64,000 bases of DNA from Escherichia coli (GCF_003334765.1 NZ_QOWT01000001.1), one strand, 5' to 3'. Positions 1,198 through 55,876 are shown, counted from the stretch's first letter. Numbers and translations: made by a program. The notes: generated from the letters alone by a model not told the origin.

Positions 1198-1503
1198 TCA
1201 GGCGAGTTTTGCCTGATTGATTTGACTAAGTGGCTCATTGACATCGAAAACTTTGGCGACAACTTCCTCAACGCCGAGATTTTTCAGTCGGGCAGTATGT
1301 TTTTCCAGATAGGCAAGGGCGCTTTTTTCATCAGTGAAAAGGTAGATCCCACCGGCTTCGTGGTTCTTTTCACTTTCTGTCCATACCTTCCACAGAAAAC
1401 CAGGTTCCTGATTAATCGACTCAGCAAGTGGTTTAAGCTGCTCAGCCATTGCGTCGCCAAATGGGCCATTAAAAGCAAAATGAAGTTGTAACAAAGTTGC
1501 CAT
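1198..1503 (-). CDS. ydhR: Dimeric alpha/beta-barrel family protein YdhR (101 aa)
   Basis: ORF-track 101 aa frame; length and sequence match recalled K-12 YdhR; synteny between ydhS and the tRNA-Val pair. Confidence 0.85.
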
Positions 1504-1610
1504 AGCGATTCTCCTTCTGATAACGCATACGAAGACAGTGTAAATCTTTTAACGTATTGGATACAGAGAAGAAACAGAGGGAAAAAGGAGAAGACCAGAT
1601 TAAGAAAATC

Positions 1611-1687
1611 TGGTGCGTCCGAGTGGACTCGAACCACCGACCCCCACCATGTCAAGGTGGTGCTCTAACCAACTGAGCTACGGACGC
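1611..1687 (-). tRNA. valW: tRNA-Val (anticodon GAC), 77 nt with encoded CCA
   Basis: RC of 1611-1687 is gcgtccgtagctcagttggttagagcaccaccttgacatggtgggggtcggtggttcgagtccactcggacgcacca: canonical D-loop and T-loop (GGTTCGAGTCC), anticodon GAC. valV/valW assignment by synteny is tentative. Confidence 0.9.
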
Positions 1688-1691
1688 AGGA

Positions 1692-1768
1692 TGGTGCGTT
1701 CAATTGGACTCGAACCAACGACCCCCACCATGTCAAGGTGGTGCTCTAACCAACTGAGCTATGAACGC
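1692..1768 (-). tRNA. valV: tRNA-Val (anticodon GAC), 77 nt with encoded CCA; tandem copy separated by a 4-nt spacer
   Basis: RC of 1692-1768 is gcgttcatagctcagttggttagagcaccaccttgacatggtgggggtcgttggttcgagtccaattgaacgcacca; differs from the neighbouring copy only in acceptor/T stem positions. Confidence 0.9.
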
Positions 1769-10359: not shown

Positions 10360-10403
10360 TCCATTTCACTCCAGACCCTAACTTCAGCTCCTGCAAAATC
10401 GCA

Positions 10404-10419
10404 AGGTAAACGTTTGCCT
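10404..10419. promoter_or_regulatory. Putative PurR operator (PUR box) in the purR leader
   Basis: aggtaaacgtttgcct; palindromic core AAACGTTT with flanking G/C as in PUR boxes; about 45 nt upstream of the purR start codon. Confidence 0.5.
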
Positions 10420-10657
10420 TTACACACCTTACGCACAACAAAAGTGTTGCGGTACGCCGGAAAAACGACACGGAGCGTCAGGAAGGGGTCAATGGCCAGT
10501 ACGCAAATAGTGTAAGCGTGGAATTTTGGCCGATCTTGACGAAAAGGGGAAGTGGTAAAAACACTTATCATTATAAATGACGGGAGATTTTTTCATCACA
10601 GTGTGTAAAAATGCGTAATATCACTTTTTGTGTGGTAATAAAAAAGGAGAAAACTTG

Positions 10658-10747
10658 ATGAGCACCGACCTTAAATTTTCACTGGTAACAACGATTATCG
10701 TCCTCGGTTTGATCGTAGCCGTGGGTTTGACTGCCGCGCTGCACTGA
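10658..10747 (+). CDS. ynhF: Small membrane protein YnhF (29 aa)
   Basis: Not in the ORF track (too short). atg at 10658 preceded by aaggagaaaactTG RBS; encodes MSTDLKFSLVTTIIVLGLIVAVGLTAALH, a single TM helix, which I recall as K-12 YnhF. Confidence 0.75.
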   Translation: MSTDLKFSLVTTIIVLGLIVAVGLTAALH

Positions 10748-10912
10748 TTTCCTCTCGAGGGAGCGCGTTCTCCCTCGCATCTCCTTCCTGTTTGTTAGCA
10801 AAATGGCAAAAGTGTTTTCTCTTTTTGTTATTTTCATTTTTTTGTGATTGCTGTCATGCTTTCGCCACTTTAATGAATATCGCGTAATGACGCGAAGAGG
10901 TGGAGATAAGGC

Positions 10913-12146: not shown

Positions 12147-12295
12147 GCCGGATGCGGTGTTAACGACTCATCCGCGTTGACATGAAAAGACGCGTTAGGC
12201 GTCGTATCATGCAGCGCTTGTCGGATGCGGCGAGTGCCTTATCCGACCTACATCGATGATCCGCGTAGGCCTGATAAGCGTAGCGCTTCAGGCAA
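12147..12295. repeat. REP/BIME cluster (three REP-like palindromic units) in the ydhP-sodB intergenic region
   Basis: gccggatgcggtgttaacgactcatccgcg, gtcggatgcggcgagtgccttatccgacctac and gtaggcctgataagcgtagcgcttcaggc match the E. coli REP consensus (GCCGGATGCGGCG...CTTATCCGGCCTAC). Confidence 0.8.
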
Positions 12296-39134: not shown

Positions 39135-41927
<2,793 letters not shown>

Positions 41928-51814: not shown

Positions 51815-52204
51815 TTCTCTCTCTTTTTCGGCGGGCTGGTGATAACTGTGCCCGCGTTTCATATCGTAATTTCTCTGTGCAAAAATTATCCTTCCCGGCT
51901 TCGGAGAATTCCCCCCAAAATATTCACTGTAGCCATATGTCATGAGAGTTTATCGTTCCCAATACGCTCGAACGAACGTTCGGTTGCTTATTTTATGGCT
52001 TCTGTCAACGCTGTTTTAAAGATTAATGCGATCTATATCACGCTGTGGGTATTGCAGTTTTTGGTTTTTTGATCGCGGTGTCAGTTCTTTTTATTTCCAT
52101 TTCTCTTCCATGGGTTTCTCACAGATAACTGTGTGCAACACAGAATTGGTTAACTAATCAGATTAAAGGTTGACCAGTATTATTATCTTAATGAGGAGTC
52201 CCTT

Positions 52205-53485
52205 ATGTTACGTCCTGTAGAAACCCCAACCCGTGAAATCAAAAAACTCGACGGCCTGTGGGCATTCAGTCTGAATCGCGAAAACTGTGGAATTGATCAG
52301 CGTTGGTGGGAAAGCGCGTTACAAGAAAGCCGGGCAATTGCTGTGCCAGGCAGTTTTAACGATCAGTTCGCCGATGCAGATATTCGTAATTATGCGGGCA
52401 ACGTCTGGTATCAGCGCGAAGTCTTTATACCGAAAGGTTGGGCAGGCCAGCGTATCGTGCTGCGTTTCGATGCGGTCACTCATTACGGCAAAGTGTGGGT
52501 CAATAATCAGGAAGTGATGGAGCATCAGGGCGGCTATACGCCATTTGAAGCCGATGTCACGCCGTATGTTATTGCCGGGAAAAGTGTACGTATCACCGTT
52601 TGTGTGAACAACGAACTGAACTGGCAGACTATCCCGCCGGGAATGGTGATTACCGACGAAAACGGCAAGAAAAAGCAGTCTTACTTCCATGATTTCTTTA
52701 ACTATGCCGGGATCCATCGCAGCGTAATGCTCTACACCACGCCGAACACCTGGGTGGACGATATCACCGTGGTGACGCATGTCGCGCAAGACTGTAACCA
52801 CGCGTCTGTTGACTGGCAGGTGGTGGCCAATGGTGATGTCAGCGTTGAACTGCGTGATGCGGATCAACAGGTGGTTGCAACTGGACAAGGCACTAGCGGG
52901 ACTTTGCAAGTGGTGAATCCGCACCTCTGGCAACCGGGTGAAGGTTATCTCTATGAACTGTGCGTCACAGCCAAAAGCCAGACAGAGTGTGATATCTACC
53001 CGCTTCGCGTCGGCATCCGGTCAGTGGCAGTGAAGGGCGAACAGTTCCTGATTAACCACAAACCGTTCTACTTTACTGGCTTTGGTCGTCATGAAGATGC
53101 GGACTTGCGTGGCAAAGGATTCGATAACGTGCTGATGGTGCACGACCACGCATTAATGGACTGGATTGGGGCCAACTCCTACCGTACCTCGCATTACCCT
53201 TACGCTGAAGAGATGCTCGACTGGGCAGATGAACATGGCATCGTGGTGATTGATGAAACTGCTGCTGTCGGCTTTAACCTCTCTTTAGGCATTGGTTTCG
53301 AAGCGGGCAACAAGCCGAAAGAACTGTACAGCGAAGAGGCAGTCAACGGGGAAACTCAGCAAGCGCACTCTTGCTACCGCGATGACCCAACAACCACAAT
53401 CCCGCGCCCGTCTGGGCGCGGCTCGTGGGATTGCCACTTCATTGACCTTTGTCTGCCTGGCATTTCTGATAGGACCGAGCATTAA
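52205..53485 (+). pseudogene. uidA: Truncated beta-glucuronidase uidA: about 388 native N-terminal residues then an out-of-frame 38-aa tail, versus the 603-aa native enzyme
   Basis: ORF-track 426 aa begins with canonical GUS MLRPVETPTREIKKLDGLWAFSL... and follows GUS to ...[11 protein letters not shown], then switches to [15 protein letters not shown]...; native length and continuation are from memory. Confidence 0.85.
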
Positions 53486-54347
53486 GAACTCCAGCCCGGA
53501 AGAGATGGTGTCGGTATACCATTTCTGGACAATTGTGCTGGCGATTGCCGGAATGGTGCTTTACTTCATCTGCTTCAAATCGACGCGTGAGAATGTGGTA
53601 CGTATCGTTGCGCAGCCGTCATTGAATATCAGTCTGCAAACCCTGAAACGGAATCGCCCGCTGTTTATGTTGTGCATCGGTGCGCTGTGTGTGCTGATTT
53701 CGACCTTTGCGGTCAGCGCCTCGTCGTTGTTCTACGTGCGCTATGTGTTAAATGATACCGGGCTGTTCACTGTGCTGGTACTGGTGCAAAACCTGGTTGG
53801 TACTGTGGCATCGGCACCGCTGGTGCCGGGGATGGTCGCGAGGATCGGTAAAAAGAATACCTTCCTGATTGGCGCTTTGCTGGGAACCTGCGGTTATCTG
53901 CTGTTCTTCTGGGTTTCCGTCTGGTCACTGCCGGTGGCGTTGGTTGCGTTGGCCATCGCTTCAATTGGTCAGGGCGTTACCATGACCGTGATGTGGGCGC
54001 TGGAAGCTGATACCGTAGAATACGGTGAATACCTGACCGGCGTGCGAATTGAAGGGCTCACCTATTCACTATTCTCATTTACCCGTAAATGCGGTCAGGC
54101 AATCGGAGGTTCAATTCCTGCCTTTATTTTGGGGTTAAGCGGATATATCGCCAATCAGGTGCAAACGCCGGAAGTTATTATGGGCATCCGCACATCAATT
54201 GCCTTAGTACCTTGCGGATTTATGCTACTGGCATTCGTTATTATCTGGTTTTATCCGCTCACGGATAAAAAATTCAAAGAAATCGTGGTTGAAATTGATA
54301 ATCGTAAAAAAGTGCAGCAGCAATTAATCAGCGATATCACTAATTAA
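53369..54347 (+). pseudogene. uidB: 5'-truncated glucuronide transporter uidB remnant (about 325 C-terminal codons of the 457-aa native protein), no native start or RBS
   Basis: Frame +1 relative to uidA reads [22 protein letters not shown]... to the native C-terminus ...[10 protein letters not shown]; the ORF-track frame 53292..54347 starts inside uidA-derived sequence. Confidence 0.8.
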
Positions 54348-54385
54348 TATTCAATAAAAATAATCAGAACATCAAAGGTGCAACT

Positions 54386-55651
54386 ATGAGAAAAATAGTG
54401 GCCATGGCCGTTATTTGCCTGACGGCTGCCTCTGGCCTTACCTCTGCTTATGCGGCGCAACTGGCTGACGATGAAGCGGGACTACGCATCAGACTGAAAA
54501 ACGAATTGCGCAGGGCGGATAAGCCCAGTGCTGGCGCGGGAAGAGATATTTACGCATGGGTACAGGGAGGATTGCTCGATTTCAATAGTGGTTATTATTC
54601 CAATATTATTGGCGTTGAAGGCGGGGCGTATTATGTTTATAAATTAGGTGCTCGTGCTGATATGAGTACCCGGTGGTATCTTGATGGTGATAAAAGTTTT
54701 GGCTTTGCCCTGGGGGCAGTAAAAATAAAACCCAGTGAAAATAGCCTGCTTAAATTAGGTCGCTTCGGGACGGATTATAGTTATGGTAGCTTACCTTATC
54801 GTATTCCGTTAATGGCTGGCAGTTCGCAACGTACATTACCGACAGTTTCTGAAGGAGCATTAGGTTATTGGGCTTTAACACCAAATATTGATCTGTGGGG
54901 AATGTGGCGTTCACGAGTATTTTTATGGACTGATTCAACAACCGGTATTCGTGATGAAGGGGTGTATAACAGCCAGACGGGAAAATACGATAAACATCGC
55001 GCACGTTCTTTTTTAGCCGCCAGTTGGCATGATGATACCAGTCGCTATTCTCTGGGGGCATCGGTACAGAAAGATGTTTCCAATCAGATACAAAGTATTC
55101 TCGAGAAAAGCATACCGCTCGACCCGAATTATACGTTGAAAGGGGAGTTGCTCGGCTTTTACGCGCAGCTCGAAGGTTTAAGTCGTAATACCAGCCAGCC
55201 CAATGAAACGGCGTTGGTTAGTGGACAATTGACCTGGAATGCGCCGTGGGGAAGTGTATTTGGCAGTGGTGGTTATTTGCGCCATGCAATGAATGGTGCC
55301 GTGGTGGATACCGACATTGGCTATCCCTTTTCATTAAGTCTTGATCGTAACCGTGAAGGAATGCAGTCCTGGCAATTGGGCGTCAACTATCGTTTAACGC
55401 CGCAATTTACGCTGACATTTGCACCGATTGTGACTCGCGGCTATGAATCCAGTAAACGAGATGTGCGGATTGAAGGCACGGGTATCTTAGGTGGTATGAA
55501 CTATCGGGTCAGCGAAGGGCCGTTACAAGGGATGAATTTCTTTCTTGCTGCCGATAAAGGGCGGGAAAAGCGCGATGGCAGTACGCTGGGCGATCGCCTG
55601 AATTACTGGGATGTGAAAATGAGTATTCAGTATGACTTTATGCTGAAGTAA
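54386..55651 (+). CDS. uidC: Outer-membrane glucuronide porin-like protein UidC (421 aa)
   Basis: ORF-track 421 aa with signal peptide and beta-barrel-like alternating pattern; synteny after uidB. Confidence 0.9.
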   Translation: MRKIVAMAVICLTAASGLTSAYAAQLADDEAGLRIRLKNELRRADKPSAGAGRDIYAWVQGGLLDFNSGYYSNIIGVEGGAYYVYKLGARADMSTRWYLDGDKSFGFALGAVKIKPSENSLLKLGRFGTDYSYGSLPYRIPLMAGSSQRTLPTVSEGALGYWALTPNIDLWGMWRSRVFLWTDSTTGIRDEGVYNSQTGKYDKHRARSFLAASWHDDTSRYSLGASVQKDVSNQIQSILEKSIPLDPNYTLKGELLGFYAQLEGLSRNTSQPNETALVSGQLTWNAPWGSVFGSGGYLRHAMNGAVVDTDIGYPFSLSLDRNREGMQSWQLGVNYRLTPQFTLTFAPIVTRGYESSKRDVRIEGTGILGGMNYRVSEGPLQGMNFFLAADKGREKRDGSTLGDRLNYWDVKMSIQYDFMLK

Positions 55652-55656
55652 AAAAT

Positions 55657-55686
55657 AACGCCGGAGAGAAAAATCTCCGGCGTTTC
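55657..55686 (+). terminator. Intrinsic-terminator-like hairpin after uidC
   Basis: aacgccggaga gaaaaa tctccggcgtt followed by tcagatt, right after the uidC stop. Confidence 0.55.
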
Positions 55687-55714
55687 AGATTGTTGACAAA
55701 GTGCGCGTTTTTTA

Positions 55715-55814
55715 TGCCGGATGCGGCGTAAACGCCTTATCCAGCCTACAAAAACTCATAAATTCAAAGTGTTGCAGGAAAAGGTAGGCCTGATAAGCGT
55801 AGCGCATCAGGCAA
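55715..55814. repeat. REP/BIME element pair in the uidC-ydgA intergenic region
   Basis: tgccggatgcggcgtaaacgccttatccagcctac and gtaggcctgataagcgtagcgcatcaggca, canonical E. coli REP units in inverted orientation. Confidence 0.85.
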
Positions 55815-55836
55815 TCTCTGGTTTGTTTTCAGATGA

Positions 55837-55866
55837 AAACGCCGGAGTGAAAATTCTCCGGCGTTT
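55837..55866. terminator. Bidirectional terminator-like hairpin downstream of ydgA
   Basis: aaaacgccggag tgaaaatt ctccggcgtttt, with A/T tracts on both sides. Confidence 0.55.
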
Positions 55867-55876
55867 TGGCCGTGAA

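Follow-up and report, generated by a model that had tools for sequence, protein, structure and literature searches.

A 1,039-bp deletion joining truncated uidA to 5'-truncated uidB in Escherichia coli: a very probably natural allele from the human gut with a predicted β-glucuronidase-negative phenotype

In the 64,000-nucleotide stretch of Escherichia coli DNA analysed here, hereafter called the window, 1,039 bp of the uid operon are missing and the 5' part of uidA, the β-glucuronidase (GUS) gene, is joined directly to the 3' part of uidB, the glucuronide symporter gene. The lesion sits at the native hdhA-uidR-uidABC-ydgA locus of an ordinary E. coli chromosome. It is very probably a spontaneous natural deletion of one origin, inherited clonally within a human-gut E. 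coli lineage, that has turned both genes into pseudogenes and is predicted to make its carriers GUS-negative. The fusion allele is real, rare and present in public genomes, where it has gone unremarked.

The breakpoints were placed by extending homology to K-12 MG1655 (reference locus L001) base by base from both sides. Left homology stops at window position 53369, corresponding to uidA nt 1165 and the first base of codon 389, and right homology begins at the next position, 53370, corresponding to uidB nt 397 and the first base of codon 133. The reference sequence missing between these two bases is L001 2871–3909. Strain H3 (L002), used as a second reference, has identical flanks and returned the same 1,039 missing bp; against neither reference was inserted DNA, a scar or any extra base found between uidA nt 1165 and uidB nt 397. 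The distance from the start of uidA to the start of uidC is 2,181 nt in the window versus 3,220 nt in K-12, and in a megablast search of 5,426 complete E. coli genomes the 2,601 bases of window 52000–54600 aligned in two pieces spread over 3,640 reference bases. A first-pass annotation made from the sequence alone had proposed a deletion of about 1 kb fusing truncated uidA to 5'-truncated uidB, with a break around nt 53366–53370, some 388 UidA residues kept ahead of uidB DNA in another frame, no inserted DNA at the junction, and a uidA-to-uidC start distance of 2181 nt against about 3.2 kb expected; all of this is borne out by the alignments, which make the size and the breakpoints exact. The ORF map and the raw sequence of window 50.5–57.5 kb gave the K-12 gene order of hdhA, uidR, uidA, uidB, uidC and ydgA. 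Feature coordinates are collected in Table 1.

Table 1. Features of the uid locus and RNA genes in the window, numbered from the first base of the window.
Feature	Position	Strand	Basis or remark
HPnc0260, antisense RNA	1487-1649	+	Rfam gathering-level match
Two tandem tRNA genes	1614-1687, 1695-1768	-	Rfam; the two tRNA-Val genes annotated in K-12
STnc550, sRNA	10360-10750	+	Rfam gathering-level match
uidR, TetR-family repressor of the uid operon, intact, 196 aa	51224..51814	+	ORF; DNA identical to K-12
uidR-uidA intergenic control region (presumed promoter/operators), unchanged	51815..52204	+	No mismatch to K-12 or H3
Retained 5' uidA, nt 1-1165 (codons 1-388 and first base of codon 389)	52205..53369	+	Breakpoint extension
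Deletion junction, GCGCACT / CTTGCTACC	53369..53370	+	1,039 bp of reference gone between the two bases
Out-of-frame tail of fusion ORF, 38 codons of uidB DNA in the wrong frame, then TAA	53370..53485	+	
Retained 3' uidB, nt 397-1374 (codons 133-457 and stop)	53370..54347	+	
uidC, outer-membrane glucuronide porin, intact, 421 aa	54386..55651	+	ORF; DNA identical to K-12

The resulting fusion ORF (52205–53485) encodes a 426-aa protein consisting of UidA residues 1–388 and 38 out-of-frame residues; in the ORF list, UidA identity runs to ...NGETQQAH and the residues thereafter are unrelated. Pfam analysis found the sugar-binding domain Glyco_hydro_2_N (PF02837, residues 12–180) complete and the Ig-like GH2 domain Glyco_hydro_2 (PF00703, residues 184–272) present. 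Glyco_hydro_2_C (PF02836), the TIM barrel, was matched only at model positions 1–110 of 302, and about two thirds of the (β/α)8 barrel is lost. In K-12 UidA, the NEP motif supplies the Glu at position 413 and TEYG the Glu at position 504. These are the catalytic acid/base and the nucleophile in EcGUS numbering, and both lie within the deleted part, as does the N566/K568 glucuronic-acid recognition motif, which is among the lost residues 389–603 and is absent from the fusion ORF. A GUS-negative phenotype is thus predicted very safely from the catalytic residues lost at this locus of the 64-kb window. A second glucuronidase gene could lie outside the 64 kb, although uidA is normally the sole one of E. 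coli. The PDB chains of E. coli GUS (3K46, 4JHZ, 6LEG and others) align only to fusion-ORF residues 1–389, with a single substitution, D24N, over the aligned part. It stems from an A at window 52274 in place of the K-12 G, the sole left-flank mismatch to L001, which is common to H3 and the other 100%-identical natural strains; D24N is a lineage SNP without relation to the deletion.

In the second gene, the start codon and residues 1–132 are missing. A hydropathy profile of K-12 UidB placed several hydrophobic segments within those residues, and the remnant lacks about the first four transmembrane helices. The N-terminal helices of GPH-family symporters carry cation-site residues. The first-pass annotation had cited native lengths of 603 aa for UidA and 457 aa for UidB, both correct for K-12, and it had rightly listed E413 and E504 among the losses, together with the N-terminal third of the transporter, now measured at 132 of 457 residues. 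Gene callers have started the uidB remnant at TTG 53292, giving a 351-aa product identical to EIG70477.1 from the genome of Escherichia sp. 4_1_40B, and, in ENA and Logan assemblies, at ATG 53505 (uidB codon 178), giving 280 aa. Another possible restart, ATG 53382 (uidB codon 137), has no convincing ribosome-binding site (Shine-Dalgarno). Judged from the sequence, a restart at either ATG would produce a half-transporter at best.

The neighbouring genes of the operon are spared. The promoter and operator role given in Table 1 to the uidR-uidA intergenic region is our assumption, carried over from K-12. No intrinsic terminator was predicted on the + strand between the fusion stop and uidC; transcription of uidC may go on, perhaps lowered by polarity. 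The uidC gene is intact and full length in three independent types of uidA/uidB loss, namely those of the window, of strain ERP001 and, with IS1B, of strain P24_WM1_05.20, and its retention in these three may reflect chance or selection to keep it. The spacer between uidC and ydgA (window 55652–55876) was found to vary in length. It measures 225 bp in the window and in K-12 and only 45 bp in ERP001 and P24_WM1_05.20, while a metagenome contig, L007 (9451–9619), departs from the window after 55685 with about 150 bp apparently missing. This indel polymorphism adjoins a strong, bidirectional-looking hairpin at 55657–55684.

The deletion is carried by other public sequences. The exact 426-aa fusion protein is already deposited as EIG70478.1 (named 'beta-glucuronidase', Escherichia sp. 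4_1_40B) and as CAM3431470.1, and an exact-sequence look-up located it on 53 contigs in NCBI, ENA and Logan, the longest of 4.9 Mb. All seven loci that were fetched (L003–L009), from different projects and assemblers, share an identical 50-mer across the junction. Carriers comprise the NCBI isolate genomes GCA_000158415.2 (scaffold JH660541.1) and GCA_039058215.1, the ENA metagenome assemblies ERZ1743085, ERZ28631448, ERZ28629797 and ERZ28648146 from three submissions, and the Logan assembly of SRA run SRR10919334; human gut metagenome assemblies and an HMP gut isolate are among the sources of the allele. Over the 13,281 bases compared, the window and the 4_1_40B scaffold agree at every position. 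Carrier loci differ from the window by 0–3 SNPs over 8–13 kb, and every SNP is private to one locus, which shows that the carriers are not copies of one data set. A 141-bp junction-centred query found the contiguous junction in none of the 5,426 complete RefSeq E. coli genomes; in 5,331 of them its two halves matched apart from each other. A 40-mer across the junction, searched for exactly in the JGI metagenome collection, gave 0 matches. The allele is therefore rare. No paper describing this uidA-uidB deletion was found in a literature search.

The deleted segment is present in 5,331 of the 5,426 complete genomes, which identifies the deletion as the derived state. One illegitimate-recombination event would have joined uidA nt 1165 to uidB nt 397. 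The event would have occurred once, in a commensal-type lineage with a K-12-like backbone represented by 4_1_40B, and would then have been passed on by clonal inheritance; a single origin is suggested by the identical junction on near-identical flanks, although many strains without the deletion share these flanks, which so give little phylogenetic resolution. The outcome is a truncated β-glucuronidase and a symporter without start codon and first 132 residues, with uidR and uidC spared, and a carrier cell would neither import nor hydrolyse β-D-glucuronides, appearing negative on MUG and X-Gluc.

Strict microhomology at the junction is 0 bp. Each of the two reference breakpoints has a CACTT pentamer, at a spacing of 1,041 bp, and the product reads CACT+CTTG, which differs from a clean one-copy CACTT product by two additional bases, CT. 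When breakpoint pairs in the region were drawn at random in a simulation, 4% of them had 5 bp or more in common in one run under the same tolerance, so the motif is only weak evidence. Clean CACTT-mediated slippage fits the junction only inexactly (extra CT), with a motif coincidence of p ~ 0.04. The deletion may have arisen either by one blunt illegitimate join or by slipped mispairing at CACTT with imprecise resolution or a later 2-bp duplication. An IS-mediated deletion was rejected, since the junction consists of reference sequence on both sides, with no IS or IS remnant and no extra base.

A contig end close to the left breakpoint was seen in Shigella. In four S. dysenteriae draft assemblies a contig breaks off within uidA at nt 1161, which is 4 nt short of the window's left breakpoint (nt 1165); one of these (GCA_014398405.1, contig AAVSJF010000093.1, locus L014) carries a 387-aa 'partial' UidA. 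The contig ends suggest an IS or repeat insertion near the same spot. The nearness of the two positions is probably a coincidence, but it could also reflect a local hotspot.

It is a separate matter whether loss of the operon was favoured or merely tolerated. Under selection, losing glucuronide import and hydrolysis would be advantageous in some gut settings, either by preventing release of toxic aglycones or by saving a cost when glucuronides are scarce, and recurrent independent loss with uidC kept would be accounted for. The distribution of lesions lends this some weight: independent lesions of several kinds affect the one locus, 95 of the 5,426 complete genomes (1.75%) lack the 1,039-bp segment through lesions other than the one described here and 8 more lack part of it, uidC is intact in all three deletion types examined, and the allele persists across several human samples. 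Neutral readings are available too. A loss frequency of about 1.75% fits mutation and drift acting on a dispensable catabolic operon, uidC retention in three cases may be chance, and the carriers are few and near-identical, so that their persistence may reflect one recent clone. Selected loss in place of neutral decay is considered unlikely. The fuller proposal, that the deletion is an instance of recurrent, positively selected GUS loss in human-gut (possibly early-life) lineages with uidC deliberately kept, is rated as a little less likely again. If it were true, GUS loss would count as adaptive, with implications for which E. coli strains in the gut return glucuronidated drugs and hormones to their active form.

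A spontaneous natural deletion also accounts for the data far better than deliberate construction of a ΔuidA reporter host or GUS knockout, which we regard as highly improbable. Deletions of uidA are commonly made in laboratory strains for GUS reporter use, and the K-12-like backbone would suit such a strain. Against an engineered origin, the locus contains no FRT, loxP, marker or vector DNA, the junction does not coincide with a restriction site (the native MluI sites lie elsewhere), the breakpoints are arbitrary and out of frame, and the backbone is closer to natural isolates than to MG1655. Occurrence of the allele in human gut metagenomes and in an HMP gut isolate, with private SNPs in the carriers, argues in the same direction. 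A strain of the uidA(ΔMluI)::pir type was rejected specifically: no pir, FRT or loxP is present, MluI would not cut at the junction, and natural isolates share the backbone.

There is similarly very little chance that the 426-aa ORF or the truncated UidB now serves some new function, such as that of a half-transporter or of a fragment that binds carbohydrate. Such a role would be compatible with the sugar-binding and Ig-like GH2 domains, both kept complete, with the intact promoter and repressor upstream and with the prediction of both ORFs by gene callers. However, the 38-codon tail of the fusion arose by accident when uidB DNA came to be read out of frame, a third of a TIM barrel would hardly be expected to fold, the uidB remnant lacks both a convincing ribosome-binding site at ATG 53382 and the N-terminal helices, and no indication of selection was found on either product.

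Finally, misassembly, which the first-pass annotation had itself raised and in which reads from an intact uidA-uidB region with the full 3.2-kb arrangement would have been collapsed or mis-joined, is a generic risk for any lone draft assembly and would agree with the junction's absence from complete RefSeq genomes, yet it has a negligible probability given an identical junction in seven independently assembled loci from NCBI, ENA and Logan, an exact protein match on 53 contigs including one of 4.9 Mb, and breakpoints without any repeat able to cause a collapse.

The 64-kb window is collinear with MG1655 at ~99.97% identity. The 25 kb flanking the deletion are 100% identical to many natural isolates (H3, ML35, NCTC9087 and others), and the backbone has a few SNPs against MG1655. 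Judging by these comparisons, the background is that of an ordinary commensal-type natural gut lineage (Escherichia sp. 4_1_40B-like), near K-12 but not K-12. The backbone is not strictly K-12, natural strains being the ones with 100% identity. A Shigella origin was considered, since Shigella is often GUS-negative, and was rejected on the 100% identity of the 25-kb flank to many E. coli isolates and the match of the window to 4_1_40B.

Elsewhere in the window, the spacer between ydhP and sodB contains 73 bases more than MG1655 at approximately 12158–12230, forming a further REP-like palindromic unit (…gccggatgcggtgttaacgactcatccgcg…tgtcggatgcggcg…). With this insertion, the first-pass view of the uid deletion as the only structural deviation from K-12 in 64 kb no longer holds. 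Within rsxC, window 39181–39701 contains 96-bp periodic self-similar repeats, seen as staggered BLAST matches at 87–91% identity; they also occur in K-12 and represent a native repetitive coding segment. The STnc550 and HPnc0260 matches and the two tRNA genes are all expected for this K-12 region.

The allele has practical consequences for detection. β-Glucuronidase activity is the standard marker by which water, food and clinical samples are tested for E. coli, and PCR assays often target uidA. Sites of uidA primers, with sequences verified against K-12, were located relative to the deletion. Those of Bej UAL-754/UAR-900, of Chern and of the Frahm forward primer and probe (uidA nt 405–830) are retained in the window, and those of UAL1939b/UAL2105b (uidA nt 1644–1810) lie inside the deletion. 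Carriers are accordingly predicted to be phenotype-negative, positive by PCR targeting 5' uidA and negative by PCR targeting 3' uidA, and would thus give discordant results between assays; they should escape MUG and X-Gluc media. E. coli GUS also reactivates glucuronidated drugs in the gut, and for this reason a resident GUS-null strain would provide a natural control. In other respects this is one more loss-of-function allele of a dispensable operon already known to break often.

Comparison with functional proteins shows what the deletion has removed. Residues 1–388 of functional E. coli GUS (GH2; PDB 3K46 and relatives) are nearly identical in the fusion ORF, whereas residues 389–603, including E413, E504, N566 and K568, are present in the functional enzyme and absent here; the fusion product is therefore not a functional member of the GUS family. 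These four are the conserved EcGUS residues needed to call a protein a GUS (PMC8748916). Full-length UidB/GusB is a glucuronide:H+ symporter of the GPH family with 12 TM, and the uid locus of the window encodes no such protein with its native start and N-terminal helices.

Other lesions of the operon resemble that of the window to different degrees. The uidAB region is less than 80% covered in one piece in 94 complete genomes. Strain ERP001 (NZ_CP063214.1) likewise has an internal deletion from the 3' end of uidA to the 5' end of uidB, intact uidR and uidC, and a uidB annotated as 'missing N-terminus'. Unlike the window, it has other breakpoints, a uidA CDS of 1,653 nt and only part of the window's deleted segment missing, and it belongs to an unrelated lineage and host, which makes it an independent event. 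In P24_WM1_05.20, an IS1B element has taken the place of the hdhA 3' end, of uidR and uidA, and of uidB except for 120 bp. Several genomes, FJ_Ec_21 and 2018-06-4CC among them, have an IS1 inside uidB. These IS1-associated lesions have in common with the window that the glucuronide operon has been inactivated in natural isolates with uidC kept, but they carry an IS1 copy at the lesion, in contrast to the window junction, which is free of IS or foreign DNA. Frameshift alleles were represented by three truncated UidA proteins (P0017, P0026 and P0030).

GUS-negative E. coli with residual uidA sequence have long been documented in human faeces. According to PMC4453288, which cites Chang 1989 and Feng 1991, glucuronidase-negative strains that still carry uidA sequences make up a sizeable fraction of E. 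coli in faeces. PMC2853080, citing Feng and Lampel 1994 and Monday et al. 2001, attributes the GUS-negative character of O157:H7 to a uidA frameshift. Like the window allele, the O157:H7 uidA (gusA) allele is a natural, lineage-marking loss of function, with strains that are MUG-negative and uidA-PCR-positive according to PMC2853080. The two differ in that the O157:H7 allele is a small insertion/frameshift in otherwise full-length DNA with uidB intact, whereas in the window 1,039 bp are gone and uidB is destroyed; the backgrounds differ as well, being EHEC in the one case and a commensal K-12-like lineage in the other. The window deletion is a further member of this well-known class of natural uidA loss-of-function alleles and is biologically ordinary.
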